Shown here: positions 12,454-40,403 of the stretch, piece after piece
How positions within the stretch are numbered: the stretch's first letter is position 1
Layout: every line of letters starts with the position of its first letter
Assembly (NCBI GenBank): GCA_051986275.1
Contig: JBPYDT010000017.1
Span: 21,621 to 85,620 of the forward strand
Length of the DNA stretch: 64,000 nt
Reading direction: 5' to 3'
Source: Acidimicrobiia bacterium
GTDB lineage: Bacteria; Actinomycetota; Acidimicrobiia; IMCC26256; PALSA-555
Translations under genes and position numbers: made by a program
Notes under the pieces: generated by a model
What the model saw: only the letters and a program-made list of their open reading frames with translations
Told to the model about the DNA's origin: nothing
Database searches by the model: none

Positions 12454-12491
12454 GCGCCGCCGCACGGGGCGCGCGGCTGACGCGACGATCG

Positions 12492-12562
12492 AGCGGCGGA
12501 CGGGAATCGAACCCGCGTCATCGCCTTGGAAGGGCGAGGCTCTGCCGTTGAGCTACCGCCGC
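12492..12562 (-). tRNA. tRNA-Gly (anticodon TCC)
   Basis: The reverse complement folds as GCGGCGG TA GCTCAACGGCAGAGC C TCGCC CTTCCAA GGCGA TGAC GCGGG TTCGATT CCCGT CCGCCGC T. No encoded CCA. Confidence 0.9.
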
Positions 12563-12583
12563 GCACGCGCGGTGTCCACGCGC

Positions 12584-12660
12584 TGGTCGGGGAGGGGGGA
12601 TTTGAACCCCCGACCGCCTGCCCCCAAAGCAGGTGCGCTACCGGGCTGCGCTACTCCCCG
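12584..12660 (-). tRNA. tRNA-Pro (anticodon TGG) with encoded CCA
   Basis: The reverse complement folds as CGGGGAG TA GCGCAGCCCGGTAGCGC A CCTGC TTTGGGG GCAGG CGGTC GGGGG TTCAAAT CCCCC CTCCCCG A CCA. Confidence 0.9.
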
Positions 12661-12868
12661 TTGTGTTCGACGCCATCGCGACCACGGCCTGGTCGCCGTC
12701 GAGCAGAGGGCTCACGGAGCACCTGCCGTTCACACCCACCCCGGCGTCTCTCGGCGGTTGTGAAGGGCGACCCGAGGACAGCGTAGGCGAGCGCTCGACG
12801 CTCACCGAGAGCTTCTGACGCAGTGTGCTTGCGGGACCGCAACTCACCACCGCCACACGGTCGCGCTC

Positions 12869-12898
12869 TTATGCCTCTCTTAATGGTCCTTCTATATG
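12869..12898 (+). promoter_or_regulatory. candidate sigma-70-type promoter in the most AT-rich patch of the window
   Basis: TTATGC (12869-12874), an 18-nt spacer, then TATATG (12893-12898). It lies upstream of the ABC operon in an otherwise GC-saturated intergenic region. The match to consensus is weak. Confidence 0.25.
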
Positions 12899-13024
12899 TT
12901 CGCTCGCGCGGTGTGCCCGCACGGGAACCCTCCGTCGGCGCGGGGCGTTCCTGAGGGCGGTTACGCGGTCCCCGAAGGTTCAAAGGAAACAGCTCCCTCA
13001 TTGGGGACTCGGGAGGATGCTCCG

Positions 13025-14566
13025 ATGTCGGTGGCGAAGGGCCGGAAGCCGGAAGGAGGGGAGCCGGTCGCGGTCGCAATGGAGCCCGACGTCGCCGATC
13101 TCGGCCCGGCAGTCGCGGCACCGTCGCAGGACGGCCACGGCGGCCGCATGGCACGGCTGCGTCGTGGCCTCGGTCAGCCCCCGGTGTGGGCGGTCGTCGA
13201 GGTGGTGGTGGTCGTCGTCGCGTTGGTGGTCGCGCTGGCGACTCGCTCCGGCGACCTGGTGCCCGCGACGACCACGTCCTCGCAGCAGCTGGTGACCGTG
13301 ACCCGAGGCACCCTCAGCAACACGGTGTCGGCCCAGGGGACCGTTTCCGCGGCGAACACGGCCAACCTGAACTTCACCGCGGCGGGGACGGTCACCGCTG
13401 TCAACGTCCAGGCCGGGGACATGGTGACCGCGGGCCAAGTGCTCGCCACCGCCGACTCGGCCCAGTTGCAGGCTGCGGTGGCGTCGGCGCAGGCGAGCCT
13501 GGCGACGGCGCAGGCGAAGGTGTCCGACGACGAGTCGTCCTCGGCCTCGGCGGCGCAGCTCGCCGCCGATCAGGCGAGCTTGACCTCGGACTACGCCGCG
13601 GTCGGCGAGGCACAGCAGGCGCTCGCGGGCGCGTCCTTGGTCGCGCCGTTCGCGGGCGAGGTCGCGCAGGTGAACGTCACGCCGGGTGAGCAGCTGTCGT
13701 CGAACGGGACGGGCGGAACCTCGCTGAGCGGGTCACAGAGCGGATCAGGGCGATCGTCCTCGGCGATCGGCTCGAGCAGCAGCTCGAGCGGCAGCGCGGG
13801 TGGTGGCACCGGCGGTGGGCTGGGCGGCGCCGGCGGCGGTGGGGCAGGTGCCGGTTCGTCTTCGTCTTCCTCGTCGTCTTCGTCTTCATCGTCTTCGTCC
13901 ACGCCGGCCATCGAGGTCATCACCCCCGGCGCCTACACGGCGAGCCTGCCGATCTCCAGCGCGGACATCGCGAGCGTCGCCGTGGGTCAGAGCGCGACCG
14001 TGACCGTGACGACGGCCGTGAACTCGGGCGGCCTCGGCGGCTTCCTCGGCGGGTTGGCCAGCCGCTTCGGCCTCGGAGGCGCGGGTTCGTCGAGCTCGTC
14101 GAGCCGGTCCGCGACCGGCGCGGCGGCGACCGGGACGGTGACGGCGGTCTCGAAGGTCGCGTCCGCGAGCTCGGGCGTCGCGCAGTACCCCGTGACGGTG
14201 TCGTTCAACGCACCGGCGACGGGCTTCTATGTCGGTGCGAGCGTGATCGGCGCGATCTCGACGAACGCGATCCCGAACGTCATCCTGGTCCCGGTCGGCG
14301 CGGTGACGACCAGCAACGCGACGTCGACGGTCGTCGTCGCCACGAACGGGACGCTGTCGGGTCCAACGCGAACTCAGGTCGTGAAGACGGGCGCCAGCGC
14401 GAACGGCTTCGTCGAGATCACCTCGGGCCTGAAGGAGGGCGAGCAGCTCGTCGTGACGACCACGACGGTGACCTCCTCGGGCTCCACCTCCTCGGGCACG
14501 GGGTCCGGCAGCGGTGCTTCATCCTCGGCCGGGACGGGCGGGGTCAAGGTCGGCTCGGGCGGCTGA
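13025..14566 (+). CDS. HlyD/MacA-type membrane-fusion (periplasmic adaptor) protein 1, short hairpin
   Basis: N-terminal TM (VWAVVEVVVVVVALVVALA). The lipoyl halves NFTAAGTVTAVNVQAGDMVTAGQVLA and LVAPFAGEVAQVNVTPGEQL are separated by a ~60-aa coiled coil. The C-terminal beta-barrel/MP domain includes VEITSGLKEGEQLVV. ATG 13025 follows GGGAGGA. The track start is 12896. Confidence 0.8.
   Translation: MSVAKGRKPEGGEPVAVAMEPDVADLGPAVAAPSQDGHGGRMARLRRGLGQPPVWAVVEVVVVVVALVVALATRSGDLVPATTTSSQQLVTVTRGTLSNTVSAQGTVSAANTANLNFTAAGTVTAVNVQAGDMVTAGQVLATADSAQLQAAVASAQASLATAQAKVSDDESSSASAAQLAADQASLTSDYAAVGEAQQALAGASLVAPFAGEVAQVNVTPGEQLSSNGTGGTSLSGSQSGSGRSSSAIGSSSSSSGSAGGGTGGGLGGAGGGGAGAGSSSSSSSSSSSSSSSTPAIEVITPGAYTASLPISSADIASVAVGQSATVTVTTAVNSGGLGGFLGGLASRFGLGGAGSSSSSSRSATGAAATGTVTAVSKVASASSGVAQYPVTVSFNAPATGFYVGASVIGAISTNAIPNVILVPVGAVTTSNATSTVVVATNGTLSGPTRTQVVKTGASANGFVEITSGLKEGEQLVVTTTTVTSSGSTSSGTGSGSGASSSAGTGGVKVGSGG
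13856..13900 (+). repeat. 15 consecutive Ser codons, (TCGTCT)n-like coding microsatellite
   Basis: The run reads tcg tct tcg tct tcc tcg tcg tct tcg tct tca tcg tct tcg tcc, inside adaptor 1. It uses T/A-ending codons that are otherwise rare here. Confidence 0.9.
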
Positions 14567-14570
14567 CGGG

Positions 14571-15308
14571 ATGTCGACGAGCGACGACGCGTCGCCTCCC
14601 GTCGTGGAGCTGATCGACGTCGAGAAGGTCTACCGAACCGGCGAGCTCGAGGTCGCCGCCTTGCGGGGTGTCTCACTCCGGGTCGACGAGAGCGAGTACC
14701 TGGCGATCGTCGGCCCCTCGGGCTCCGGCAAGTCCACGTTGATGCACATCCTCGGGTGCCTCGACGTCGCCACCAGCGGGATCTTCCGCATCATCGGACA
14801 CGACGCCCAGTCGCTGGACGAGGACCTGCTCGCCCGCATCCGCAACGCGTTCATCGGGTTCGTGTTCCAGCAGTTCAACCTGTTGGCCCACATGACGGCG
14901 CTGCAGAACGTGGAGCTGCCACTGGTCTACGCCGGCGTGGACCCCGCGGAGCGACGCGCGCGGGCGATCGCCGCGCTCGACAAGGTCAGTCTCGTGGACC
15001 GGTCGGAGCACCGGCCCGGCGAGCTCTCTGGCGGGCAGCAGCAACGCGTCGCGGTGGCGCGGGCGCTGATCACCGAACCGGCCGTGATCCTCGCCGACGA
15101 GCCGACCGGCAACCTCGACTCGGCAGCGGCAGCCGACGTGCTCGCGCTGCTCGAGGAGCTGAACGCCGACGGACGCACGCTGGTGGTCATCACGCACGAG
15201 CGCGACGTCGCCGCTCGGGCGAAGCGCACGATCGAGATCCGCGACGGCCAGGTGTGGGATCCGGAGGCGCACGGCGTCGGCGCGGGCGACACGGGGTCGC
15301 TCCGATGA
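14571..15308 (+). CDS. ABC transporter ATP-binding protein, MacB/LolD type
   Basis: Walker A is GPSGSGKST, the signature is [15 protein letters not shown], and Walker B is [11 protein letters not shown]. The start is the ATG ([21 protein letters not shown]) 4 nt after the adaptor 1 stop. Confidence 0.9.
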
Positions 15309-16543
15309 CCTGGCGCGACACGTTCTGGACAGCCATGGACGCCGTGCGGTCCCACCGCCTGCGTTCCTCGCTCACGATGCTCGGGATCCTCATCGGGATC
15401 ACGGCCGTGGTCCTCACCGTGGGGATCGGGCAGGGCGCCCAGGCCACGGTGCAGGACCAGATCAACGAGCTGGGCACGAACCTGCTCGTGGTCTCGCCGG
15501 GAAGCTCGACGAACGCCACGGGCGTCCGGGGCGGCTTCGGCACGGTCACGACCCTGACGCAAGCCGACGCCGCGGCCCTCACGTCGAATGTCGCCGCGCC
15601 GGACGTCCAGGCCGTCAGCCCGGTGGCGACGTCGTCGGCCGAGCTGGTGAACCCGACGACGGGCCAGAACTGGACCACGACCCTGACCGGGACGACGCCG
15701 AGCTGGCAGACCACCCGGTCCAGAGGCGCCGTGCTGGGTCGCTTCATCTCGGCCGCCGACCAGCGGAACGCGACGTCGGTCGTCGTGCTCGGCCCGAACA
15801 CCGTCACGCAGCTGTTCGGGAGCAACGACCCGCTCGGCAGCTCCGTGACGTTCAACGGCGTCAAGCTCCAGGTGATCGGCGTGCTCCAGAGCTTGAGCTC
15901 CGCCGAGCAGGCGGCGAGCAACGACCTGGCGGTGGTGCCCTTGAGCACCTACGCGCAGCGGCTCGTCGGGGGCGCCAGCCGGAACTCGGTGAGCTCGATC
16001 TACGTCAAGGCCACGTCGGCGGGCACCCTCTCCGCGGCGTACCAAGAGACCAACGCCCTGTTGCTGAACACGCACCACGTCACGAACGCCAGCACCGCCG
16101 ACTTCTCGATCGCGACGCAGCAGTCGATCCTCGCCGCGTCCAACTCGGTCGACAACACGCTGACCGTGATGCTCGCCGGGATCGCCGTCATCTCTCTGCT
16201 CGTCGGCGGGATCGGGGTGATGAACATCATGCTCGTGTCCGTCACCGAGCGGATCCGAGAGATCGGCGTCCGCAAGGCGATCGGCGCGTCGCCCAGCATC
16301 ATCCGCCGCCAGTTCCTCGTCGAGGCGTCGGTGCTCGGCCTCGCCGGAGGGCTGCTCGGCGTGGCGGTCGGGATCCTCGGCGCATTCCTCGTGCCGCAGT
16401 TCAGCGACCAACGCGTGATCTTGTCGATCCCGGCCTCGATCGGCGCCATCGTGATCGCGGTCGGGATCGGCGTCGTCTTCGGCGTCTACCCCGCGTCGCG
16501 CGCGGCGCGGCTCGCCCCGATCGACGCGCTGCGAAGCGAGTGA
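15305..16543 (+). CDS. ABC transporter permease, MacB/FtsX type with large extracytoplasmic domain
   Basis: [36 protein letters not shown], then a ~250-aa external domain. The C-terminal FtsX region includes [24 protein letters not shown]. An ATGA overlap joins it to the ATPase gene. Confidence 0.9.
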
Positions 16544-16547
16544 CACG

Positions 16548-18269
16548 ATGACTGAGACCGCGACGTCATCGGCGATGGCCACCAAGCTCGCCACGGTGTT
16601 CCCTGAGCTGGACCCGGTCGCGACGGTGACGCCCGAGCCGTCGCGTCGACCGCGCGTCCGGGCCCTCGCCGCCGGCGCCATCGTCGTCGTCATCGCGATC
16701 GTCGCCACGCTGAGCGGGGTGTTCTCCTCGTCCAGTTCCGACTACCGCACGGCCGTCGCCTCGACCCAGAACGTCAACGCCGCACTCAGCGGCGTCGCCA
16801 CGATCGAGCCCCAGCTCGAGGCGACCGTCGCCTTCCCGGCGTCCGGGACCGTGACGTCGGTCAACGTGAAGGTCGGCGACACGGTCAGCGCGGGGCAGAC
16901 CTTGGCCCAGCTCGACACCCAGTCCCTCACCCAGACGCTCGACCAGCAGATGGCGACGCTCACCCAAGACCAGCTCACGCTGTCCAACGCGATGAACGGG
17001 CAGTCCACCCCCGGCGGCGGGCTGGGCGGTGCCGGCGGCTCCAGCGGGACGGGCACGGGGAGCGCCAGCTCGACGGCGGCCGGTCTGAGCGCGGCCGTCA
17101 CGTCGCCGGCCGCGCACCGCGGCGTGCTGCTCGCGGTGGAGATGGACGCGAGCGACCCGGCGATCGCGGCGGCGCAGCAGCGGGTGCTCGCGGCCCAGCA
17201 GCAGGTCGACGCCGCCCAGTCCGCGGCCGCGACCGCGATGAGCGCCGCGCTCGCGGCCTGCGTCCCCGCACCCGCGCCGGGGCCTGCCCTGTCGACGTGC
17301 CTGAGCGATCTGCAGGCCGTGTCGTCGGCCCAGAACGCGGTCACGAGCGCCCAGAAGTCGCTGGCCGCCGCCTCCACCGCCCTCGACCAGCTCCTCAACC
17401 AGGCCGCCTCCGCACCCGCCGCCAGCAAGCCGGCCACGAGCGGCTCCGGCGGCTCGGGCGGCGGGGGCCTCGCCCCGTCAGGGTCGGCTGGGCGCTCCTC
17501 GAGCGCGGCGGTGGCGCCCTCCGCCGCGGATCTCACGGCCGATCAGGCCGCGGTCGACGCCGCGCTCGCCAACGTCGCGGTCGCCCAGCAGGCCCTCGCC
17601 CAGGCCACGCTCACCAGCCCGATCAACGGCACGGTCGACGCGGTCAACCTCGTCGTGGGCGCCTCGGTGAGCGCCGGCTCCTCGACGGCCAACATCGTCG
17701 TGCAGGGCAGCGCCGGCTACCAGGTGTCCACCACGATCGGCGTCGACAACATCCCTCACGTCGCCGTCGGGCAGCCGGCCACCGTCGTCCCGGACGGCGC
17801 CCACAAGCCGCTCACCGGCAAGGTCGCGTCGATCTCGATCGCGCCCAACTCGACCAGTGCGCTGACGACCTCCTACCTCGTGGTGATCGGGTTGAAGCAC
17901 CCGAACCTCGCGCTCGGCAACGGCTCGACCGGCACGGTGACGATCACCACACAGCACGCCAAGTCGACGCTGGCCGTGCCGACCTCCGCCGTCAGGACCT
18001 CCGGGAACGCTCACACCGTCGAGGTGCTCGACGGCAACACGCCACGCCGGACGCCGGTCCGCGTCGGCGTCGTCGGCTACACGTGGACGCAGATCACGTC
18101 CGGCCTCAAGAAGGGGCAGCAGGTCGTGCTCGCCCAGGTGTCCCAGCCGCTGCCCGGCTCCGCCACCAACTCCACCACCTCCTCGAACGCCACGAACGCC
18201 CGGAACACGGTGAACGGCACCCCCATCTTCGTGGGCCGTGGCGGCGGCGGGCTGCGAGGCGGCGGCTGA
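16548..18269 (+). CDS. HlyD/MacA-type membrane-fusion adaptor protein 2, very long interrupted hairpin
   Basis: It has an N-terminal TM. The lipoyl halves [29 protein letters not shown] and [20 protein letters not shown] are ~230 aa apart. That interval holds Ala/Gln coiled-coil segments broken by Gly/Ser tracts. The C-terminus includes [16 protein letters not shown]. Confidence 0.8.
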
Positions 18270-18305
18270 CTTCGTCCGTTCCAAACCCCAACACGAGGTA
18301 CCACG

Positions 18306-19169
18306 ATGAACAACCAGCCCGCATCCGCTCCTCGAGCGCGGACAACCGCCCTCGCGCGAGCCGCGTGGGCCGCGCTCCCGATCACCGCGCTCGCGGTCGC
18401 GCTCGCCGCCGCACCGGCCGACGCGCAGACCTCGGGCACGACACTGCCGCCGTTCACCAGCGGGATGCTCTCCGCGCTCACCGGGTCGACGCTCAGCGTC
18501 CAGGCCCGCAACGGCCGATCGACCACCGTGGTCGTGACCGGCTCCACCGTCTACCAGCAGACCAAGTCGGCCACCGCGTCCGACGTCGCGTCCGGGGACT
18601 GCGTGCGCGTCGTCGGGACGGGCAGCGCCGCGAGCGGTATCCAAGCGACCACCGTGGTGATCACCAAGCCGACCTCGAAGGGCTGCGTCCCCGGGATCCG
18701 CGCCGCGGGCAACGGGAGCGGGTTCGCTGGCCGTCGATTCGGCAACGGGACCCCGGGCAGCACCCCGTTCACCCGGCCCAACGGCAGCGCGGGCACGGTG
18801 CCGACCAACGTCGCGGCCGCGTTCGGCACGGTCAGCAGCGTCTCGGGTGATCAGCTCACCGTGAAGCAGCAGGCCCCGGAGACGAACAGGAAGACCAAGG
18901 TGAAGGCGGGGAAGGTGTCGGTCACGCTCACCGGCACCACCACGTTCACCCAGACGGTCAAGGGGGCCGCGGCCGACCTCTCCGTCGGGTCGTGCGTGGC
19001 CGCCAACGGGACCGTCGACAGCCTCGGCACGATCACCGCCAAGAGCGTCACCATCTCCCAGCCGCAGAACGGCTCCTGCGGTGGCGGCCTCGGTGGCTTC
19101 GGCGGGTTCGGCGGCCGGTTCGGGCCCGGCGCCGCTCCCGGCGGCGCCACGCCGACGTCCACCGCCTGA
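18306..19169 (+). CDS. secreted protein with two DUF5666-like repeats and Gly-rich tail
   Basis: The signal peptide is ALPITALAVALAAAPADAQT. The two internal repeats are (G)STLSVQ..VVVTGSTVYQQT..SDVASGDCVRVVG..IQATTVVI and GDQLTVKQ..VSVTLTGTTTFTQTV..ADLSVGSCVAANG..ITAKSVTI. The tail is GGGLGGFGGFGGRFGPG. Confidence 0.65.
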   Translation: MNNQPASAPRARTTALARAAWAALPITALAVALAAAPADAQTSGTTLPPFTSGMLSALTGSTLSVQARNGRSTTVVVTGSTVYQQTKSATASDVASGDCVRVVGTGSAASGIQATTVVITKPTSKGCVPGIRAAGNGSGFAGRRFGNGTPGSTPFTRPNGSAGTVPTNVAAAFGTVSSVSGDQLTVKQQAPETNRKTKVKAGKVSVTLTGTTTFTQTVKGAAADLSVGSCVAANGTVDSLGTITAKSVTISQPQNGSCGGGLGGFGGFGGRFGPGAAPGGATPTSTA

Positions 19170-19176
19170 GGCGCGC

Positions 19177-19216
19177 CCCTGACCGAGCACGCCCGGCGAG
19201 GCGGGCTCGGTCAGGG
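19177..19216. terminator. GC-rich hairpin between convergent genes (candidate bidirectional terminator)
   Basis: The 12-bp stem pairs CCCTGACCGAGC (19177-19188) with GCTCGGTCAGGG (19205-19216), with a 16-nt loop. It starts 8 nt after the + strand stop and overlaps the - strand stop. It has no U tract. Confidence 0.45.
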
Positions 19217-20083
19217 TGCCGGGCGGTGGCGGGCCTGCTCGACGACGGCCGCGGTGGAGTCGAAGGCGCGCCGCGCCGCCTCGTCGACGGGGAGCGTCTG
19301 GTGCTCGAGGGACATGATCTCGACGGAGAACGGCGCGGTCACGCCGACGGCATCGAGCATTGAGACGAGGCTCGTCAGGTCGAACGATCCCTCGCCGGGC
19401 AGGCGGCGTCGCAGCATCGTGTCCTCCGCGAGGGGCCCGATCATCGTCGGGTCGGCGTCGTCGAGCTGCACCCCGGTGATCCGGTCGCCGGGGAGCGACC
19501 GCAGCAGCGCGGCATCCGGACGACCCCGGAAGTAGTGCCAGGCGTCGAGGAGCACGCCACCGTTGGGTCGAGCGGCGCGCCGGGCGATCTCCGAGGCGGT
19601 GGCGAGGTCGGGCACCGCGGTCCACGGCAGGAACTCGAACGCCACCTTCGTGCCGTGCTCGGCTGCCCGGTCGCACACGTCGCCGAAGCGCTCGGCGATG
19701 ACCTCGACCGACGGCGCGTCGCCGGCCCCGCTGAGCTCGCCCACGTTGAGGTGATCGGGCGCGAAGGCCGCCGACATCGCATCGAAGGTCGCCTCGCGCG
19801 CGCGGGCCTCGCGACCGCGCGCGCCGTCGAGCGCCCAGTCGAAGTGGAACTCGATCTCGAGGACGCGCATGCCGTGATCATCGAGGACACGGCGCAGCTC
19901 CGCGTCAGAGGTTCCGGCGCCGCGCATGGCCGCGTAGTCCGTCGACTCCAGGCCGATCCCGACGAAGCCGGCCGCGGCCGCGGCGCTGACGCGCTCCACG
20001 AACGAGAAGCGCGGCGCCTGCATGACCGGAGCTCCCGACAGGGTGTAGTGGCTAGCGATCAGCGACGGCGCGCCCGAGGTCAC
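19211..20083 (-). CDS. sugar phosphate isomerase/epimerase (xylose-isomerase-like TIM barrel)
   Basis: Trimmed to the GTG at 20083, which follows AGGAGGA. The sequence is VTSGAPSLIASHYTLSG...GTKVAFEFLPWTAVPD...GVLLDAWHYFRG. The 538-aa track ORF has a low-complexity, non-coding-looking N-terminal half. Confidence 0.8.
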   Translation of the reverse strand: MTSGAPSLIASHYTLSGAPVMQAPRFSFVERVSAAAAAGFVGIGLESTDYAAMRGAGTSDAELRRVLDDHGMRVLEIEFHFDWALDGARGREARAREATFDAMSAAFAPDHLNVGELSGAGDAPSVEVIAERFGDVCDRAAEHGTKVAFEFLPWTAVPDLATASEIARRAARPNGGVLLDAWHYFRGRPDAALLRSLPGDRITGVQLDDADPTMIGPLAEDTMLRRRLPGEGSFDLTSLVSMLDAVGVTAPFSVEIMSLEHQTLPVDEAARRAFDSTAAVVEQARHRPAP

Positions 20084-25339: not shown

Positions 25340-26689
25340 ATGCGCGCCGGCGTGACTGGCGGGCGGGCCGGTGCGCTCGCCGCGGCGGCCGCGCTCGTCG
25401 GCACGCTGCTCGTCGGCTGCGGCGGCGGTGGCGGGCTCGACGTGGCCGCCGTGCAGCGCGCCATCACCCGCAAGGCCACCCTGGCGTACCCGATGCTCGG
25501 CGTCGCGAGCACCCGCTGCCCCAACGCCACCGCGGGCCGCTTCCGCTGCACGGTCCGCACCGCGAGCGTGCCGTTCCACGTCACGGTGCGGACCACCCGC
25601 ACCGGCCGTCTCGGCCTGACGGCCCTCGACGCCGTTATCCCGAACGCCGCGGCGGCGTACCTGGTCCACGCGAACGCGTCGATCCCCGCGCTCGTCGGGT
25701 GCGGGCCGAGCGGGGTGACGGTCGCCGCGCCCGGCGCGACCCTGCCCTGCAGCGTCGGGTTCGTCGACGGCACGAACGAGACGGTGCAGGTCCGCATCCT
25801 CGACGCGGCCGGCGACGCGCAAGTCGAGACCCCGGCCCAGGCGGCGCTCCCACCGGCCGCGACGCCGGGGGGCAGCGTCGCGTGGTCGCCGCTCGGGCGC
25901 ACCGCGCTCGGCCGCCCCGTCACCTTCGGCGGCCAGGTCGACGGGGTCGGGCTCGCCTGGATGGACCCGGAGCTGTTGCACCCCGTCCTCGTCGCGGGCA
26001 CGAGCGACCCGCCGAACGGGCCCGGCCCGTGGGGCGGCCAGGTTCCCGACCCGCAGCGGGGCGCGCTCGCCGCGGCGTTCAACTCGGGCTTCAAGATGGG
26101 TGACATCCGCGGCGGCTGGGTCGGATGGGGCGCCACGTGGCGGCCGCCGGAGGCCGGTGACGCGTCGCTCGTGGTCAGCAGCGCCGGGCAGGCCAGCCTC
26201 GGCGAGTGGGGCCGTGACGTCCCGGGCTCCTCCGACGCGGCGTTCGTCCGCCAGAACCTCACGCTGCTCGTCGACGGGGGCGCGCCCGTGGCGTCCGCCT
26301 CGAGCCCCGGCGCATGGGGCGCGAGCGTCAGCGGCGTCGACACGTGGCGCTCCGCGCTCGGCATCGACGCGCACGGCGCGCTGGTGTACGCGGCTGGGGG
26401 TGGCGTCACGCCCGCCGCGCTCGCGCAGGCGCTCGTCGCGGCCGGCGTCCAGCGCGCCATGGAGCTCGACATCAACCCCAGCTGGGTCAGCTACAACACC
26501 TACCAGCCGGCGCTCGACGGGACCGTCCACGGCACGAAGGTGTACGGGCTCCACGCCGACGACCGATACCTGAGCCCCGACTCCCGTGACTTCATCGCCA
26601 TGCTCGTCCGCGGCGTCGTCGCGTCGGGCGCAACCGGACGAATCGGCGCGCCGGCGCTGCACTCGACCATCGCGATGCCCACGACCTGA
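25340..26689 (+). CDS. phosphodiester glycosidase (DUF2233/NAGPA-like) lipoprotein
   Basis: Lipobox GTLLVGCGGG. The C-terminal domain includes AAFNSGFKM...RSALGIDAHGALVYAAGGGVTPAALAQALVAAGVQRAMELDINPSWV. Confidence 0.75.
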   Translation: MRAGVTGGRAGALAAAAALVGTLLVGCGGGGGLDVAAVQRAITRKATLAYPMLGVASTRCPNATAGRFRCTVRTASVPFHVTVRTTRTGRLGLTALDAVIPNAAAAYLVHANASIPALVGCGPSGVTVAAPGATLPCSVGFVDGTNETVQVRILDAAGDAQVETPAQAALPPAATPGGSVAWSPLGRTALGRPVTFGGQVDGVGLAWMDPELLHPVLVAGTSDPPNGPGPWGGQVPDPQRGALAAAFNSGFKMGDIRGGWVGWGATWRPPEAGDASLVVSSAGQASLGEWGRDVPGSSDAAFVRQNLTLLVDGGAPVASASSPGAWGASVSGVDTWRSALGIDAHGALVYAAGGGVTPAALAQALVAAGVQRAMELDINPSWVSYNTYQPALDGTVHGTKVYGLHADDRYLSPDSRDFIAMLVRGVVASGATGRIGAPALHSTIAMPTT

Positions 26690-26754
26690 GTCACCGCAAC
26701 CCAAATCCGGTGCGAAGGGGCGCCGAAGGCCACGGGTATCCTGCCCTTCTCTCT

Positions 26755-28134
26755 ATGTCCCCCCTCACGACGTCGGTCGAGCCGCTCGAGGGCAACAAGG
26801 TCCGACTGCGGGTGGAGGTGCCGGCCGCCGACTTCGAGCGGGCCATCGACGCCGCCTTCCGCAAGCTCGCCCGTGAGGTGAAGATCCCCGGGTTCCGGCC
26901 GGGCAAGGCGCCGCGGGCCCTGCTTGAGGCGCGGCTCGGCAGCGAGGTGGCTCGGGAGCAGGCGCTGCGCGACGCCCTGCCCGAGTACTACGCCCAAGCC
27001 GTGCAAGCCGAGGACATCGACGTCATCGCGGCACCCGAGATCGACATCACCCAAGGCGAGGACAGCGGCGACGTCGCCTTCGACGCGGTCGTCGAGATCC
27101 GGCCCGAGGCGCGGCTCGACGGCTACGACGGCGTGAGCGTCGAGATCCCGAACCCGGCCGTCACCGACGAGGAGGTCGACACCCAGATCGACGCGCTGCG
27201 CGACCGCTTCGCCGACCTCGAGGACAAGAACGCGCCGCTCGTTGACGGCGACTACGCCCAGATCGACATCAAGGCGTACGTCCACGAGGAGGTGATCGAC
27301 GCGCTGAGCGCCACCGACTACCTCTACGAGATCGGCTCCGGGGGCGTCGTGCCCAAGCTCGACGAGGAGCTGCGAGGCAAGCGGGTCGGCGACATCCTGC
27401 GCTTCAACGACACCCTCCCCGAGCGGTTCGGCGACCGCGCCGGCCACGAGGTCGCGTTCCAGGTGCTCGTCAAGGAGACGAAGCGCAAGGTGCTGCCTGA
27501 GCCGAGCGACGAGTGGGCGTCCGAGGTGAGCGAGTTCGACACACTCGACGCCCTCCGCGCCGACGCCCGTCAGCGGCTCGGCGTCGTCGCCACCGTGCGC
27601 GCCCAGATGCTCGTGCGCGACAAGGTGCTCGAGGCGGTCGCCGAGCGCGTCGACGTCCCCATCCCCGAGGCGCTCGTCGACCAGGAGGCGGAGCGGCGCC
27701 TCCATGACCTCGCGCACCGGCTGGAGCACCAAGGCGTCACGATCCCCGAGTACCTCGCCGCGACGGGCCAAGAAGAGAAGGCGTTCGTCGCCGAGCTGAA
27801 GGAGCACGCCACCGACGCGGTGCGCGCTGATCTCGCGCTGCGCTCCGTCGTCGATCAGGAGCAGATCGAGGCGACCGACGAGGAGCTGCAGCGAGAGATC
27901 GACCGCGTCGCCGAGCGAGTGGGGGAGAAGCCCGCCAAGGTGCGGCGCGATCTTGATCGGCGCGGCGTGATCGAGGCGGTACGCTCGGACATCGCTCGCG
28001 GCAAGGCACTCCAGTTCCTCGTCGACCACGCCCAGGTCGTCGACGAATCCGGCGACCCCGTCGAGCTCACGCTGCCCGACGGCGCCCCCGCCGACCATCC
28101 CCCGACAACCGCCGAAGCTGAGGAGTCCGAGTGA
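26755..28134 (+). CDS. tig: trigger factor
   Basis: [58 protein letters not shown] is a classic Tig N-terminus. The track start 26710 was trimmed. Confidence 0.9.
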
Positions 28135-28784
28135 GTCAGCCCACCCGCAGCCTGGTCCCCGCCTACGACTACCTGGTGCCCACCGTCGTCGAGCAGACGA
28201 GCCGCGGCGAGCGCGCGTTCGACCTCTACTCGCGGCTGCTGAAGGAGCGGATCATCTTCCTCGGCACGCCGATCGACGACGCGATCGCCAACCTGCTCAT
28301 GGCACAGCTCATCCATCTCGAGAGCGAGGACCCCGACAAGGACATCTCGCTGTACATCAACTCGCCGGGTGGAGAGATCACGGCGCTGATGGCGATCTAC
28401 GACACGATGCAGTACATCAAGCCCGACGTGCAGACGATCTGCATCGGGCAGGCGGCGTCGGCCGCCGCGGTGCTGCTCGCCGCCGGGACGCGCGGCAAGC
28501 GCTACGCGCTGCCGCACGCCCGCATCCTCATCCACCAGCCGCACGGCGGCGCGTCCGGTCAGGCCGTGGACATCGAGATCCAGGCGAAGGAGATCACGCG
28601 GATGCGCGAGCTCCTCGACGAGATCCTGGCGTACCACACCGGCCAGCCCGTCGAGAAGGTCGGCGCCGACACCGACCGCGACTTCATCATGGGCGCGACC
28701 GAGGCGAAGGAGTACGGGATCGTCGACGAGATCCTGACCAACCGAGACTTGGCTTCGGTGGCGCCCGCCGCCGGGGTCAGCTGA
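28131..28784 (+). CDS. clpP: ATP-dependent Clp protease proteolytic subunit
   Basis: [47 protein letters not shown]...[11 protein letters not shown]...ILIHQP. A GTGA overlap joins it to tig. Confidence 0.95.
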
Positions 28785-28809
28785 TCCGCCCAGCGAGGGG
28801 GAGCGCGTC

Positions 28810-30063
28810 GTGGCGAAGTTCGGTGACGGTGGCGACCTGCTGAAGTGCTCGTTCTGCGGGAAGAGCCAGAAGCAGGTCAAGAAGCTCATCGCTGGCCCCG
28901 GCGTCTACATCTGCGACGAGTGCATCGATCTCTGCAACGAGATCATCGAGGAGGAGCTCTCCCAGAGCTCCGAGGTGCGCTTCGACGAGCTCCCCAAGCC
29001 GCGTGAGATCTACGAGTACCTGAACGACTACGTCATCGGCCAGGAGCAGGCCAAGAAGATCCTGTCCGTCGCCGTCTACAACCACTACAAGCGGGTGCAG
29101 GCCGGCGCGTACGGGGACCCCGACGTCGAGCTTCAGAAGTCGAACATCCTCCTCATCGGGCCGACGGGGTGCGGCAAGACCCTGCTCGCCCAGACGCTCG
29201 CCCGCCTGCTGAAGGTCCCGTTCGCGATCGCCGACGCCACCGCGCTCACCGAGGCGGGCTACGTCGGCGAGGACGTCGAGAACATCCTCCTCAAGCTCAT
29301 CCAGGCGGCCGACTACGACGTCAAGAAGGCCGAGACCGGCATCATCTACATCGACGAGATCGACAAGATCGCCCGCAAGGCGGAGAACCCGTCGATCACG
29401 CGCGACGTCTCCGGCGAGGGCGTGCAGCAGGCGCTGCTGAAGATCCTCGAGGGCACGACCGCCTCGGTGCCGCCGCAAGGGGGGCGCAAGCACCCCCACC
29501 AGGAGTTCATCCAGATCGACACGACGAACATCCTGTTCCTGTGCGGTGGCGCGTTCGCCGGGATCGACAAGATCATCGAGAGCCGCATCGGCAACCGCGG
29601 CGTCGGCTTCGGCGCCGACGTGCGCCGCCCCGACCAGAAGGACCTCGGCGCGCTGCTCGCCGGCGTGCTGCCCGAGGACCTGCTGAAGTTCGGGCTGATC
29701 CCCGAGTTCGTCGGCCGCCTCCCCGTCGTCGGGGCGGTGCACAGCCTCGACCAGGAGGCGCTGATGCGCATCCTCGTCGAGCCGAAGAACGCCCTGCTGA
29801 AGCAGTACCAGAAGTTCTTCCAGTTCGACGACGTCGACCTCGTGCTCACCGACGACGCGCTCGAAGCCGTGTCCGAGGAGGCGCTGAAGCGCGGCACCGG
29901 CGCCCGCGGCCTGCGCGCCATCCTCGAAGAGGTGCTCCTCGACGTCATGTACGACCTGCCGAGCCGCTCCGACGTGGCGCGCTGCGTCATCGACCGGTCG
30001 GTCGTCCTCGAGCACATGACGCCGACGCTCATCACCAGCACGCCCGACCGCCGCTCCGCCTGA
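28810..30063 (+). CDS. clpX: ATP-dependent Clp protease ATP-binding subunit ClpX
   Basis: The zinc finger is [30 protein letters not shown], Walker A is GPTGCGKT, and Walker B is IIYIDEIDK. Confidence 0.95.
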
Positions 30064-34046: not shown

Positions 34047-34460
34047 GTGAGCACCCGCACCCTCTTTCTCTGCAAGCCCGACGCGGTGGAGCGCGGCCTC
34101 GTGGGCGAGATCATCGGGCGCGTCGAGCGCAAAGGGCTGCGCATCGTGGCGCTCGACCAGCGCCGGATCGACCGCGTCCTCGCCGAGCAGCACTACGCCG
34201 AGCACCGGGGCAAGCCCTTCTTCGAGGAGCTCGTGGTGTTCATCACCCGCGGACCGCTCGTGGCGATGGTCCTCGACGGCGGCCCCGACACGTGGGCGGT
34301 CGTCCGCCGGCTGATGGGGTCGACCGACCCGCGCCAAGCCGATCCCGGGACGATCCGCGGCGACCTCGCGCTCGAGACGGGCGAGAACCTCGTGCACGGC
34401 TCCGACGGGCCCGAGTCGGCGGCCCGCGAGATCGCCCTCTTCTTCCCCGACCTCGCCTGA
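34047..34460 (+). CDS. ndk: nucleoside-diphosphate kinase
   Basis: [36 protein letters not shown]...[20 protein letters not shown], with the active-site His in NLVHGSD. Confidence 0.95.
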
Positions 34461-34611
34461 GAGGGTACGCGGACTTCGCGCGGCCGCCTGGTTCAATGGC
34501 CGGGTGGCATCACGGGGCGCGCCGCCCCCGCCCACGAGGACGGCTGGACCGACCTGGGAGCAGGCCCTAGCCTGGCCGAGTCCCGGACCCCGTCGGATTG
34601 CTGGACGGTCT

Positions 34612-35652
34612 GTGAACGCCCCCTGGTACACCAACGTCATCGGTCGCGACATGGCCGTCGACCTCGGCACGGCGAACACAGTCGTCTACGCGCGGGGCCA
34701 GGGGATCGTCCTCAACGAGCCGTCGATCGTCACCATCGACCTGCGCGACGGCTCGCTGCTCGCCGTCGGCACGAAGGCGAAGCGGATGCTGGGCCGCACC
34801 CCGTCCCACATCGAGGCCATCCGGCCGCTGAAGGACGGCGTCATCGCCGACTTCGACATCTGCGAACAGATGCTGCGCTACTTCATCCAGAAGGTCCACC
34901 AGCGCAACCGCTGGGCGAAGCCCCGCATGGTCATCTGCATCCCCTCGGGGATCACGGGCGTCGAGCGGCGGGCCGTGCAGGAGGCCGCCGAGTTCGCCGG
35001 CGCCCGCAGCCCGGTCATGGTCGTCGAGGAGCCGATGGCGGCCGCCATCGGCTCGGGCCTGCCGATCCACGAGCCGACCGGCAACATGATCGTCGACATC
35101 GGGGGCGGCACCACCGAGGTGGCGGTCATCTCGATGGGCGGGATCGTGGCCAGCGAGGCGAGCCAGATCGCGGGCGACGAGTTCGACGAGTCGATCATCT
35201 CGTTCATGAAGCGCGAGTACTCGCTGGCGCTCGGGGAGCGCACCGCCGAGGACATCAAGCACCAGCTGGCGAGCGCCTATCCCCTCCAGGACGAGTTCTA
35301 CGCCGAGGTGCGGGGCCGGGACCTCGTGACCGGCCTGCCCCGCACCGTCACCGTCTCGACGCAGGAGATGCGCGAGGCGATCGAGGAGAACGTCGCCGCG
35401 GTCATTGACACCATCAAGGTCACGCTCGACAAGACCCCGCCCGAGCTCGCCGCGGACGTCATGGAGCGCGGCATCACCCTCGCCGGAGGCGGCGCGCTGC
35501 TGCTCGGCCTCGACGCGGCGATCCAAGCCGAGACCGGCATGCCCGTCCGCAAGGCCAAGAACCCGCTCTTCTCGGTGGTCGTCGGCTCGGGGCGCTGCCT
35601 CGAGCAGTTCGACGCGCTGCGACAGGTGCTCATCAGCGGCCCCGAAGACTGA
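34612..35652 (+). CDS. mreB: rod shape-determining protein MreB
   Basis: DMAVDLGTANTVVYARGQGIVLNEPSIV...IVDIGGGTTEVAVISMGGIV...ITLAGGGALLLGLD. The start was set to GTG 34612 and ATG 34651 is also possible. Confidence 0.9.
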   Translation: MNAPWYTNVIGRDMAVDLGTANTVVYARGQGIVLNEPSIVTIDLRDGSLLAVGTKAKRMLGRTPSHIEAIRPLKDGVIADFDICEQMLRYFIQKVHQRNRWAKPRMVICIPSGITGVERRAVQEAAEFAGARSPVMVVEEPMAAAIGSGLPIHEPTGNMIVDIGGGTTEVAVISMGGIVASEASQIAGDEFDESIISFMKREYSLALGERTAEDIKHQLASAYPLQDEFYAEVRGRDLVTGLPRTVTVSTQEMREAIEENVAAVIDTIKVTLDKTPPELAADVMERGITLAGGGALLLGLDAAIQAETGMPVRKAKNPLFSVVVGSGRCLEQFDALRQVLISGPED

Positions 35653-35682
35653 TCCGAGCCCTCCGGCTCCAGGGAGGCGCTC

Positions 35683-36537
35683 ATGGCCGTCTATCGCCGA
35701 GACACGCGGGGGCGGTTCCTGCTCACGGCGGTCATCGTGTCGTCGCTGCTGCTCATCACGATCGACTCCGGGAACGGCAGCGGCGCCGTCGCCTCGCTGC
35801 GCTCCACCGCGCACAACATCATCTCGCCCCTCCAGTCCGTGGTGAACGACGCGTTCCAGCCGCTGCGCGACGTCGCGGGCGGGATCACCACCTACGGGTC
35901 CCTGAAGAACCAGAACGACGAGCTGCGCCGCCAGATCTCCGACCTGCGCGGCCAGCTGCGCCAGACCCGGGGGGTCGGCAACGAGCTGCCCGAACTCGAG
36001 AAGCTGCTCGACCTGCCGACGGTGGCCGACGCGACCGGCATCGTGGCCCGCGTCACCGCCGGCGCGCCGGGCAACTTCGAGCGCACCGTCGTCCTCGACA
36101 AGGGGTCGAGCGAGGGCCTGCGGGTTGGCTACCCGGTGGTGACGGGCGACGGCCTCGTGGGCACGATCACCCAGGTCGCGGGGCAGTCGGCCACCGTGAC
36201 CCTGCTCGACAGCCCGACGCTCGGCGTCGGCGTGCGCCTCACGACGAGCAACACCGAGGGCATCACGGTCGCGAAGGCGGGGGAGCGCGATCTGACGATC
36301 GGGTTCCTCTCCGACTCGAACGTGAAGGCGCAGAAGGGCGAGCTGGTGCTCACGTCAGCGTCCGCGAACGAGGCGTTCCCGCCGGACATCGTCGTGGGCA
36401 CGGTGGTGTCGTACTCCAAGCCCCTCCAGGACCTCGCGCCGACGATCACCGTCGCGCCAACCGTGAACCTCGACGACCTCGACTTCGTGAAGGTCCTGCG
36501 GTTCCCCGATCCCACTGCTGCGCCGCGAGGCGGGTGA
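35683..36537 (+). CDS. mreC: rod shape-determining protein MreC
   Basis: It has an N-terminal TM and a coiled coil (LKNQNDELRRQISDLRGQLRQ). The beta domains include GYPVVTGDGLVGTITQV. Its position after mreB supports the call. Confidence 0.85.
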   Translation: MAVYRRDTRGRFLLTAVIVSSLLLITIDSGNGSGAVASLRSTAHNIISPLQSVVNDAFQPLRDVAGGITTYGSLKNQNDELRRQISDLRGQLRQTRGVGNELPELEKLLDLPTVADATGIVARVTAGAPGNFERTVVLDKGSSEGLRVGYPVVTGDGLVGTITQVAGQSATVTLLDSPTLGVGVRLTTSNTEGITVAKAGERDLTIGFLSDSNVKAQKGELVLTSASANEAFPPDIVVGTVVSYSKPLQDLAPTITVAPTVNLDDLDFVKVLRFPDPTAAPRGG

Positions 36538-36547
36538 CCATCGGCTC

Positions 36548-37057
36548 GTGGGTCTGCGCCGCATCCGACTCATCCTCGTCGTCATCACCCTGGTCGTGCT
36601 CCAGACGACGGTGGTCACGCACCTGCGCGTCCTCGACGCGGTGCCGAACCTGCTGCTCGTCGGCGCGGTCGCGATGGCGTACGACTCCGGTCCGCTCCCC
36701 GGGGCCCTGTTCGGGTTCGCCGGCGGCCTGGGCATCGACCTGTTCCTCACCACACCGCTCGGTCTCTCGGCGCTCAGCTACGCGCTGACCGCGTACGGCG
36801 TCGGCGTCTTCCAGGGCGGCCTCATCCGCGAGACGCGCACCATCGCGCCGGTGCTCGGCTTCGTCGGGGGCATCGTGGGGAACATCCTTTTCATCGTGAT
36901 CGGCGGGATCGCCGGGCGCGGTGAGCTCTTCGCGCTGCACAACATCCAGGTGATCGTCGTCTCGTCGGTGTACGACGCGGTGGTGGCCTACGCCGTGTTC
37001 CCATTCGTGCGCTGGGCGGCCAAGACCGACGTGGGACGGGCCTGGCCCGGTCGCTAG
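36548..37057 (+). CDS. mreD: rod shape-determining protein MreD
   Basis: 169-aa, 5-TM protein between mreC and PBP2. It shows the typical MreD hydrophobic pattern. Confidence 0.75.
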   Translation: MGLRRIRLILVVITLVVLQTTVVTHLRVLDAVPNLLLVGAVAMAYDSGPLPGALFGFAGGLGIDLFLTTPLGLSALSYALTAYGVGVFQGGLIRETRTIAPVLGFVGGIVGNILFIVIGGIAGRGELFALHNIQVIVVSSVYDAVVAYAVFPFVRWAAKTDVGRAWPGR

Positions 37058-37167
37058 GCTGGCGTCACCGTGACCCCGCGAGCCGGCCGGCGCTCGTCCA
37101 CGCCGCCCGGGGGCGGCCGGCGGCGTGCAGCCGACCGACCGGGGGACCCGACCACGATCGCCGCGGG

Positions 37168-39210: not shown

Positions 39211-40403
39211 TGGCTGTCTCCGTCCGCACCCGCTCCCGCAACCGGTCGCCGTACGCCGCGGTGTACGGGCCGCCCAAGAAGCGCAGCTTCGTCCTGCTCG
39301 ACCGCGAGCTCGTGGAGCGGCTCGACTGGGTGCTCATCGCGGCGTGCGCCGCGATCGCGATCTTCGGGATCGTGATGATCTACTCGTCGTCCCGGACCCT
39401 CGTGCCCGGCGACCCGACCTACTACGTGAAGCGCCAGGTGCTCGCGCTGGTGCTCGGGGTCGTCCTCGGGATCGTCATCCTGCGCTTCGACTACCGCAAA
39501 TGGCGCGACTTCTCGCTCATCGCGTACATCGGCGTCGTCATCCTCCTCTTCCTGGTGATCTCGCCGTTCGGCTCGAGCGTGAAGGGCCACCAGGCCTGGT
39601 TCCAGCTGCCGTTCGGCTTCCAGCTCCAGCCGTCCGAGCTCGCCAAGTTCGGGCTCATCGTCGCGCTGGCCGGCTACGTGAACGAGTACCGCCACGACAT
39701 CGACCCGTGGCGGCTCGTCGTCATCGTCGGCCTCTCGCTCATCCCGATCGCGCTCGTCCAGCTGCAAGGCGACCTCGGGACCAACATCGTGCTGATCTTT
39801 GCCGTCATCGGGCTGCTCGCCGTCGCCGGTGTGCCCGGCCGGTACCTGGCGATCCTGACCGGGCTCGGTCTCACGCTCATCTTCGCCGTGATCAGTCTCG
39901 GGATCTTGCAGCAGTATCAGGTCGACCGATTGACCACCGTGTTCTCGAGCAGCAACGGCAAGCACCAGACCGCGACGGCGTACAACCAGAACCAGTCGGT
40001 GGCGACGATCTCGACCGGCGGGTTCAACGGCCTCGGCCTCTTCAACGGCCCCCAGACCAGGCTCGGGTTCGTCCCCGAGCAGCAGACCGACTTCATCTTC
40101 ACCGCGGTGGGGGAGGAGCTCGGCTTCGTCGGCGGCGCGCTGCTCCTCGCCCTGTTCGGCCTCGTGATCTGGCGCACCTGGCGAACCGCCCGGATCGCCT
40201 CCGACTTCTACGGGACGATGGTCTGCGCCGGCGTGCTGGCGCTCTTCGCCTTCCAGATCTTCGAGAACATCGGCATGACCATGGGGATCATGCCGGTGAC
40301 GGGGATCCCGCTCCCGTTCATGAGCTACGGCGGCTCGTCGCTGCTGGCCAGCTGCGCCTGCGTCGCGCTCGTGTGCAACGTCCACGCCCGGCGGTTCACC
40401 TGA
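39210..40403 (+). CDS. rodA: FtsW/RodA/SpoVE family peptidoglycan glycosyltransferase RodA
   Basis: A 10-TM SEDS protein with QPSELAKFGLIVALA and IPLPFMSYGGSSLL. Its ATG overlaps the mrdA stop by 1 nt. Confidence 0.9.
   Translation: MAVSVRTRSRNRSPYAAVYGPPKKRSFVLLDRELVERLDWVLIAACAAIAIFGIVMIYSSSRTLVPGDPTYYVKRQVLALVLGVVLGIVILRFDYRKWRDFSLIAYIGVVILLFLVISPFGSSVKGHQAWFQLPFGFQLQPSELAKFGLIVALAGYVNEYRHDIDPWRLVVIVGLSLIPIALVQLQGDLGTNIVLIFAVIGLLAVAGVPGRYLAILTGLGLTLIFAVISLGILQQYQVDRLTTVFSSSNGKHQTATAYNQNQSVATISTGGFNGLGLFNGPQTRLGFVPEQQTDFIFTAVGEELGFVGGALLLALFGLVIWRTWRTARIASDFYGTMVCAGVLALFAFQIFENIGMTMGIMPVTGIPLPFMSYGGSSLLASCACVALVCNVHARRFT

Follow-up and report, generated by a model that had tools for sequence, protein, structure and literature searches.

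The window analysed here is a stretch of 64,000 nucleotides (nt) from an Acidimicrobiia bacterium, an actinobacterium of soil (assembly GCA_051986275.1, contig JBPYDT010000017.1, positions 21,621 to 85,620 of the forward strand). Five open reading frames (ORFs) on its + strand, at positions 13025-19169, encode an adaptor (A1), an ATP-binding cassette (ABC) ATPase, a permease of the MacB type, a second adaptor (A2) and a protein with two DUF5666 domains. This module belongs to the kind of pump that MacB forms with its adaptors, and its conserved composition, two adaptor classes together with a DUF5666 protein, is undescribed. Both adaptors are found in fixed order around the pump genes in all informative relatives of the operon that a survey with A2 returned. 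We consider it about an even chance (roughly 0.5) that the products of all five genes work together as one envelope machine in an actinobacterium with a single membrane, with A1 and A2 sharing a mixed ring like that of TriA and TriB and the DUF5666 protein as a tethered accessory.

A conserved operon with two adaptor genes

The five genes of the operon and the domains detected in their products are the following.

13025-14566, + strand: adaptor A1, 513 amino acids, with Biotin_lipoyl_2, HlyD_3 and HlyD_D23
14571-15308, + strand: ABC ATPase of the MacB/LolD type, 245 amino acids, with ABC_tran at 104 bits
15305-16543, + strand: MacB-type (type VII ABC) permease, 412 amino acids, with MacB_PCD and FtsX
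16548-18269, + strand: adaptor A2, 573 amino acids, with Biotin_lipoyl_2 and HlyD_3
18306-19169, + strand: protein with two DUF5666 domains, 287 amino acids, PF18914 at 39.5 bits against a cut-off of 27, in two stretches

The A1 gene starts with the ATG at 13025, which has GGGAGGA 7 nt before it, and its stop codon ends at 14566. The ATPase gene begins 4 nt beyond this stop with the ATG at 14571, the ATG of the permease gene at 15305 shares the letters ATGA with the stop of the ATPase gene, and the ATG of the A2 gene at 16548 again lies 4 nt beyond the preceding stop. Only before the start of the DUF5666 gene (ATG 18306) is there a longer gap, of 36 nt, which contains GAGG. The intergenic distances of 4, -4, 4 and 36 nt, as well as the gene order, match exactly what an earlier reading of the sequence, the original prediction, had given. 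Relatives of the operon have similar overlaps or short gaps, and the spacing together with the recurrence described below identifies the genes as one tightly coupled unit.

For the survey one genome per species of GTDB was searched with an alignment of 24 A2 sequences as the query, and the 70 loci obtained were annotated by phmmer with the five window proteins. They come mostly from metagenome-assembled genomes (MAGs) and isolates (Aquihabitans) of the Acidimicrobiia, and in addition from Pseudonocardiaceae, among them Amycolatopsis taiwanensis and Kutzneria viridogrisea. The order A1-ATPase-permease-A2 was found in 64 of the 64 loci with DNA upstream of the ATPase gene, the other six being cut by contig ends. 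Homologous loci with usually one adaptor had been named in advance as a finding that would speak against the two-adaptor reading; all 64 of these A2-seeded loci carry both adaptors in the conserved order. The actinobacterial host that had been proposed is borne out by the closest homologues, which come from named Acidimicrobiia. The permease and the ATPase are closest to the window proteins (median identity 69% and 67%), followed by A1 (44%), A2 (42%) and the DUF5666 protein (33%). In environmental data the family of the long adaptor comprises 2,320 clusters at 50% identity (E <= 1e-30).

The theme was also met from other starting points. Three seed proteins with two DUF5666 domains, 30-34% identical to the window protein, all lie in modules of MacB and DUF5666 genes. 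Two of these modules (L078 and L079) are intact and encode an adaptor of about 400 amino acids, an ABC protein, a MacB permease, a DUF5666 protein and an adaptor of 569-639 amino acids, with overlaps of 4-8 nt. L077, the third, contains fused or fragmented genes; a 475-amino-acid protein without a Pfam match is encoded upstream and the downstream adaptor is in fragments. A search of a plasmid collection with the permease led through distant matches to a locus of Nonomuraea and to a locus with one adaptor. The former (L076, Nonomuraea gerenzanensis NZ_LT559118, 4773216-4786475) has a permease 37% identical to that of the window and a long adaptor of 613 amino acids with about 290 residues between its lipoyl halves, the gene of which is divergent to a unit of short adaptor, ATPase, permease and a DUF5666-like protein. 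This DUF5666-like ORF has a single domain, and its score of 21 bits does not reach the Pfam threshold. The sequence concerned is an unannotated chromosome of 11.85 Mb which PLSDB lists as a 'plasmid'. With A2 as the query the plasmid collection yielded nothing but a truncated piece of an adaptor in Cnuibacter. In the search for permease homologues the matches listed all had at least 71% identity, a range in which the limits of the two-adaptor form are not visible.

MacB operons commonly have one adaptor, and A2 and the DUF5666 gene might merely be co-located with a pump consisting of A1, ATPase and permease. The survey leaves such a chance neighbourhood close to refuted, given the conservation in every informative locus and the coupling by 4-nt gaps or overlaps. 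Moreover, the linkage persists where Pseudonocardiaceae and Nonomuraea have the genes in another order, and the DUF5666 protein as a search seed leads to the same module.

Some irregularities were observed among the loci. Reading frames split into two or three frames occur in eight loci from MFD MAGs (L006, L015, L020, L023, L057, L059, L064 and L072). As the broken frames cluster in MFD assemblies and affect ATPase and permease too, they are probably assembly indel errors and not a pseudogenisation specific to the adaptors. Two copies of the whole module are present in each of three MAGs (L007 and L011 on the same contig, L018 and L021, L032 and L064), which fits diversified pumps. Two MAGs designated 'Candidatus Melainabacteria' (L044 and L071) have the gene order of the Pseudonocardiaceae type, the A2 segment of L044 being almost identical to that of L037, and a MAG labelled 'Bifidobacterium' (L041) carries the A1-ATPase-permease-A2 module; these three taxonomic labels are likely to be wrong by misbinning or mislabelling.

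Two dissimilar adaptors

Both adaptors are genuine members of their family, as they pass the adaptor model TIGR01730 with 111 bits (A1) and 128.6 bits (A2) at a cut-off of 94.9. That they are not duplicates of each other, as had been claimed, was confirmed by BLASTP, where similarity was limited to two segments, 52 amino acids of the N-terminal lipoyl half at 44% identity and 141 amino acids in part of the C-terminus at 28%. Precomputed Pfam annotation of the Aquihabitans orthologues places RND-MFP_C/CzcB_C on A1 and YknX_C on A2. With so little shared sequence and different C-terminal Pfam families a recent duplication was rejected. The distances between the lipoyl halves, estimated in the original prediction as about 60 and about 230 amino acids, were measured as 59 in A1 and 230 in A2.

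The domain architecture of A1 was read from the coverage by hidden Markov models (HMMs) and from its sequence. A transmembrane anchor (residues 54-72) is followed by the N-terminal lipoyl half (117-144), the hairpin (145-203) and the C-terminal lipoyl half (204-224), and then by a Gly/Ser-rich insert (about 225-295), the beta-barrel and membrane-proximal domains and a Ser/Gly tail. The length of the hairpin, 59 amino acids, is the same in 45 of 49 orthologues. The N-terminus of A1 is unconserved among the orthologues, and the protein is free of cysteines.

In A2 a transmembrane helix (39-55) precedes the N-terminal lipoyl half (93-123), two base helices (124-149 and 326-351) and the C-terminal lipoyl half, which starts at residue 354; beta-barrel and membrane-proximal domains and a Gly-rich tail complete the protein. 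The region between the lipoyl halves (124-353 in the window) ranges from 183 to 372 amino acids in the orthologues, with a median of 245, and is built from Ala/Gln helices with Gly/Ser tracts between them. The following part of it is specific to A2.

16995-17522, + strand: insert of A2 on the tip of its base hairpin, residues 150-325, delimited in the AlphaFold2 (AF2) model

The AF2 model of A2 has a mean predicted local distance difference test (pLDDT) score of 70.7, with values of 85-97 in the folded lipoyl, beta-barrel and membrane-proximal domains, and contains helices at 124-149, 204-238, 246-288 and 326-351 and disordered linkers at 156-201 and 293-319. The insert thus runs from a Gly/Ser disordered linker through helix 204-238, a turn and helix 246-288 to a second disordered linker. 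In the alignment of the orthologues the helices are free of gaps and the linkers vary in length. When residues 150-325 are taken away, 26 + 26 helical residues remain, which is about the size of the A1 hairpin; on the model, A2 reads as an adaptor with a short hairpin at the tip of which a second hairpin is tethered. The only two cysteines of A2, C238 (17259-17261) and C251 (17298-17300), flank the turn of this second hairpin and could be joined by a disulfide; 56-57 of 59 orthologues retain them. A lack of lipoyl and beta-barrel architecture in a predicted structure of A2 had been proposed as counter-evidence to the two-adaptor reading; both are present in the model. The first Foldseek match was MacA in MacAB-TolC (E 7e-18), followed by AcrA, MexA, EmrA and Spr0693, with E values from 1e-13 to 7e-18 for MacA, AcrA, MexA and EmrA. 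By sequence, too, MacA is the closest solved structure.

A further stretch of A2 precedes the transmembrane helix.

16548-16660, + strand: residues 1-38 of A2, a moderately conserved LAxLFP-like stretch followed by a run of arginines

Proline 19 in this stretch is found in 43 of 59 orthologues. The difference between the moderately conserved N-terminus of A2 and the unconserved one of A1 hints, no more, that A2 is possibly the partner which contacts the cytoplasmic side.

The two adaptors could form separate homo-oligomeric rings which would be interchangeable on the same core, for different substrates or states of the wall. Each has a transmembrane anchor and complete docking domains and could in principle bind the permease alone, and the characterised adaptors MacA, YknX and Spr0693 are homo-hexamers. 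We regard such an exchange of rings as unlikely, however, as redundant alternatives are usually lost sporadically and neither adaptor has been lost in any of the 64 informative loci, which belong to two classes. The fixed position of A1 before and A2 after the pump genes and the matched lengths of the base hairpins also argue against it.

The ABC core

In NCBIfam the ATPase is matched best by the models of the MacB nucleotide-binding domain (271.6 bits), LolD (233.8 bits) and DarD (225.2 bits), with none of the equivalog cut-offs reached; on its sequence it is a member of the family and the orthologue of no named system. The permease scores 140 bits with MacB_PCD (PF12704) and 67.6 bits with FtsX (PF02687), both over the cut-offs. 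It is laid out as a large extracytoplasmic MacB_PCD (Porter/Sabre) domain, placed between TM1 and TM2, and the C-terminal transmembrane module of the FtsX type. Sequence matches to solved structures in the PDB were obtained with MacB (5gko, 181 bits) and Spr0695 (5xu1, 139 bits), the match to MacB being full-length with 151-181 bits. The domains that had been suggested for an HMM check, HlyD_D23, MacB_PCD, FtsX and DUF5666, were all found.

The MacB family works by mechanotransmission and includes FtsEX as a member that does not transport. Like FtsEX the module might use ATP to move the long coiled coil of A2, perhaps along with the DUF5666 protein, and so regulate remodelling of the wall or assembly of the envelope, with no export taking place. 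The high conservation and mostly single copy of the permease, the neighbourhood of tig-clpPX and mreBCD-pbp2-rodA (see below) and the unusual tethered helical hairpin of A2 would suit such a mechanotransducer. It is nevertheless quite unlikely, as the FtsX-specific NCBIfam models give 28-34 bits with the permease at cut-offs of 225-255, against 196 bits with MacB. Furthermore, no hydrolase or other enzyme domain is present in or beside the operon, both partners of the core are canonical pump adaptors, and the two module copies in three genomes are more like what is seen with pumps.

The DUF5666 protein

The fifth protein of the operon consists of a signal peptide (about residues 1-40, with APADA|QT at its end), a first beta-barrel domain (50-127), a Gly-rich linker, a second beta-barrel domain (169-258) and the Gly-rich tail GGGLGGFGGFGGRFG. 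Its cysteines are arranged as one pair in each domain (Cys99/Cys127 and Cys230/Cys258), and two repeats with an invariant pair of cysteines in each are also found in its homologues. AF2 yielded two six-stranded beta domains with pLDDT values above 90 and a disordered Gly-rich linker between them. A Foldseek comparison of the fold with the PDB gave only insignificant matches to OB folds (E >= 0.5), and a profile search of the PDB gave no match. Homology to CusF was rejected (hhalign probability 0.7%, Pfam CusF_Ec E 0.1-0.4). No functional literature on DUF5666 was found.

To detect partners a profile was built from homologues of the DUF5666 protein and run on the 70 loci. A two-domain relative adjoins the pump in 57 of them, 26 times after A2, 18 times directly before A1, 10 times between permease and A2 and three times on the opposite strand. 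All loci with the gene between permease and A2 are of the Pseudonocardiaceae type. Besides the window protein the partners in L007, L046, L039 and L073 also pass the Pfam threshold of DUF5666, and those in L035 and L022 were detected solely by the custom profile. Of the 13 loci without a relative seven are incomplete and six complete, and in the latter no convincing alternative partner was found. Anchoring of the protein is variable. In the clade of the window it has a cleavable-looking signal peptide and four cysteines, in eight loci of the Pseudonocardiaceae type a lipobox, and in about half of the loci a Pro-rich N-terminus followed by one transmembrane helix, with no cysteines.

The survival of the linkage through reshuffling of the genes is strong evidence for a shared function of pump and DUF5666 protein, and because of the frequent membrane tethering and the variable position the latter is better seen as a component of the machine than as a released product. 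The original prediction had considered it as possible cargo. A dedicated secretion system, in which the DUF5666 protein is exported by Sec and then extracted or pushed through the wall by the pump, would agree with the cleavable-looking signal peptide of the window protein and its gene directly after A2, with the handling of Sec-exported peptides and small proteins by MacB-family pumps, with the extraction of lipoproteins by LolCDE, and with the lipoprotein version in Pseudonocardiaceae. We hold this to be very improbable. A transmembrane helix or lipobox is present in most related loci, and the N-terminal transmembrane helix after a Pro-rich cytoplasmic segment in about half of them is hard to square with release; the gene changes its position, even inside the operon, and six complete loci do without a homologue. 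In addition the LolCE model gives only 38 bits with the permease at a cut-off of 362.

Gly-rich tails end both A2 (18150-18266) and the DUF5666 protein (19080-19166), and the tail of A1 is of the Ser/Gly type. The A2 homologues end with FPGGGxGGxGFPGGG and the DUF5666 protein with GGGLGGFGGFGGRFG. These tails may be a shared signal for association with the wall or may have arisen by low-complexity drift in DNA of high G+C content.

A proposed envelope machine

In the machine that we propose, the core would be a MacB-type (type VII) ABC transporter with a pair each of ATPase and permease subunits. On the model of MacB, hydrolysis of ATP would move the large extracytoplasmic domain and would open no transmembrane channel, and the substrate would be taken from the outer face of the membrane. 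A1 and A2, both anchored in the membrane, would dock on this core and form one mixed ring with unequal roles, as TriA and TriB do on their RND (resistance-nodulation-division) pump. The matched base hairpins of the two adaptors would make up a lower tier, and the hairpins specific to A2 would reach beyond it into the wall zone or across it. The proposal takes up the hetero-adaptor conduit and the two-tier assembly spanning the wall which the original prediction had put forward, and both stay inferences. The DUF5666 protein would be a tethered accessory at the surface of the membrane, presenting the substrate, gating the machine or contacting the wall, and not an exported product. As default substrate a peptide or a lipid-linked or amphiphilic compound may be envisaged which is expelled from the outer leaflet, in analogy to YknXYZ, Spr0693-5 and MacAB.

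Several points weigh against this proposal. The shared ring of A1 and A2 is drawn by analogy from TriA and TriB, and the two-fold symmetry of the MacB dimer fits an alternating 3+3 ring awkwardly. The pLDDT values below 50 in the linkers around the second hairpin of A2 mean that a rigid upper tier is unsupported by the model. With no significant structural or sequence match for the DUF5666 fold the role of this protein is a guess, and the six loci with complete flanks have no detectable DUF5666 partner. The permease is far better conserved than the adaptors, which could point to a housekeeping role in the envelope and not to drug efflux; together with the housekeeping neighbourhood this may leave room for a function in envelope biogenesis. 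The main survey was seeded with A2 and shows that A2 implies A1, not the reverse, and a plasmid labelled Arthrobacter citreus (L075) carries an ordinary one-adaptor MacB operon. Comparison of the latter with the loci L076-L079 indicates that the two-adaptor theme reaches beyond the A2-seeded set and is not universal to MacB operons.

Comparison with known systems

MacAB-TolC resembles the module in its permease with MacB_PCD and FtsX, its MacB/LolD-like ATPase and its adaptor with transmembrane anchor, split lipoyl domain, hairpin, beta-barrel and membrane-proximal domains, and provides the best solved matches for A2 (MacA) and for the permease (MacB). In the window, in contrast, ATPase and permease are separate proteins, two adaptor genes are present in place of one, and the DUF5666 partner is added; the hairpin of A1 is far shorter than that of MacA. 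The Acidimicrobiia are regarded as monoderm. An outer-membrane channel as in MacAB-TolC is unexpected in such a host, and no OEP domain of an outer-membrane factor was detected among the about 30 window ORFs scanned, a scan that covered the window and not the whole genome.

Closer in cell envelope are YknWXYZ of Bacillus and Spr0693-0694-0695 of Streptococcus pneumoniae, which share with the module the monoderm host, the split of ATPase and permease and a membrane-anchored adaptor. A2 carries YknX_C in precomputed Pfam annotation, and Spr0695 is a solved match to the permease with 139 bits. These systems have one adaptor, as opposed to two here, and neither a DUF5666 partner nor a tethered second hairpin with a pair of cysteines, whereas a four-transmembrane Yip1-like protein such as YknW is missing among the five products of the operon. 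The Gram-positive MacAB-like pumps YknXYZ, Spr0693-5 and AS-48EFGH all work with one adaptor. From what is known of MacB-family transporters (review PMC5985334), the core of the module would most likely use mechanotransmission to handle substrates on the outer side of the membrane, and the adaptors of Gram-positive bacteria are believed to build funnels in the zone of the wall.

TriABC-OpmH of Pseudomonas aeruginosa is the two-adaptor system named in reviews up to June 2026, and it is an RND pump. Its two dissimilar adaptor genes lie in one operon and are both retained, as in the module; neither TriA nor TriB can be dispensed with and their roles differ, and a mixed 3+3 ring in which the roles are divided has its precedent in this system. 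Both A1 and A2 weakly match the solved TriA-TriB fusion (6vej). TriABC differs in being built on an RND trimer driven by the proton-motive force and in needing an outer-membrane channel, whereas the module has an ABC dimer and no gene for an RND protein or outer-membrane factor (OMF) is present in the operon. Also, triA and triB are adjacent and their adaptors are without a second hairpin, whereas the adaptor genes flank the pump genes here. DSY0927 of Desulfitobacterium hafniense has been predicted, on bioinformatic grounds only, to be a double adaptor in one fused chain that neighbours an ABC transporter (Zgurskaya et al., via PMC4338810). According to this description it resembles the module in that two adaptor types are combined with one ABC-type pump in a Gram-positive organism. 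It differs in being a single fused polypeptide of a firmicute and in being uncharacterised, and the description reports no DUF5666 partner. As to the DUF5666 protein, the fourth components CusF, YbjP, AcrZ and YknW of other pumps are likewise small extra proteins, extracytoplasmic or in the membrane, tied to a pump; CusF is also a small OB-like beta-barrel, but with no detectable homology.

Targeted phrase searches of the literature found no two-adaptor MacB system in Actinomycetota. The statement in the original prediction that no characterised example is known stands, within the literature searched, as far as characterised two-adaptor ABC pumps are concerned, but has to be qualified by the partial precedents of TriABC-OpmH and the fused adaptor of Desulfitobacterium.

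Upstream region and chromosomal setting

The features around the operon are the following.

12491-12660, - strand: tRNA-Gly(TCC) and tRNA-Pro(TGG), directly upstream of the operon
12866-13024, + strand: conserved upstream region or leader, with the AT-rich motif TCTTATGCCTCTCTTAATGG at 12868-12887 and the ribosome-binding site GGGAGGA
26590-30060, downstream of the operon: housekeeping cluster of trigger factor (tig), clpP and clpX
34315-40400, downstream of the operon: housekeeping cluster of mreB, mreC, mreD, PBP2 and rodA

About 160 nt 5' of A1 can be aligned among the window, L004, L005 and L017 despite diverged A1 proteins. The region is opened by the AT-rich block TCTTATGCCTCTCTTA(A/G)TGG with two copies of TCTTA that are 11 nt apart, in surroundings of 72% G+C. 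It is probably not coding because its alignment contains 1-nt indels. A regulatory RNA was considered and rejected: the only Rfam matches were the two tRNAs, the z-score of the fold was weak (-0.47), and covariation was absent among the four sequences. The region could be a promoter or operator; scans for promoters and terminators are uninformative in DNA of 72% G+C.

With the tRNA genes on the opposite strand upstream and a convergent xylose-isomerase-like gene downstream the operon is self-contained, and the clusters tig-clpP-clpX and mreBCD-pbp2-rodA further downstream place it in the core chromosome. A horizontally transferred island beside the tRNAs was rejected in view of the housekeeping flanks and the uniform G+C content of 0.71-0.73, the window having 72% throughout. 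Very long ORFs overlap the operon in antisense, for example one of 732 amino acids at 17478-19676 on the - strand. With their Arg/Gly/Pro-rich translations these are typical artefacts of high G+C content and not genes.

Implications for adaptors in monoderm bacteria

The role of adaptors in bacteria that have no outer membrane is acknowledged to be open (PMC4338810, PMC5985334). The module is a natural experiment on this role, as two non-equivalent adaptors are kept together in all informative loci, and it is apparently the first case of a conserved two-adaptor system on an ABC pump of the MacB type instead of an RND pump. A two-adaptor ABC pump would test how general the division of labour between TriA and TriB is. 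Cultured carriers, namely Amycolatopsis taiwanensis DSM 45107, Kutzneria viridogrisea DSM 43850, Aquihabitans spp. and probably Nonomuraea gerenzanensis, make the module tractable.

Going further, monoderm Actinomycetota might own an unrecognised class of envelope machine, with a MacB motor, an obligate ring of two kinds of adaptor, the A2 hairpins, possibly stapled by disulfides, as a tier in the wall, and a family of DUF5666 accessories. This generalisation is offered as a speculation, which we think somewhat doubtful at present. If true, the new class would show what membrane-fusion proteins do where no outer membrane exists, and DUF5666 would gain its first functional context.

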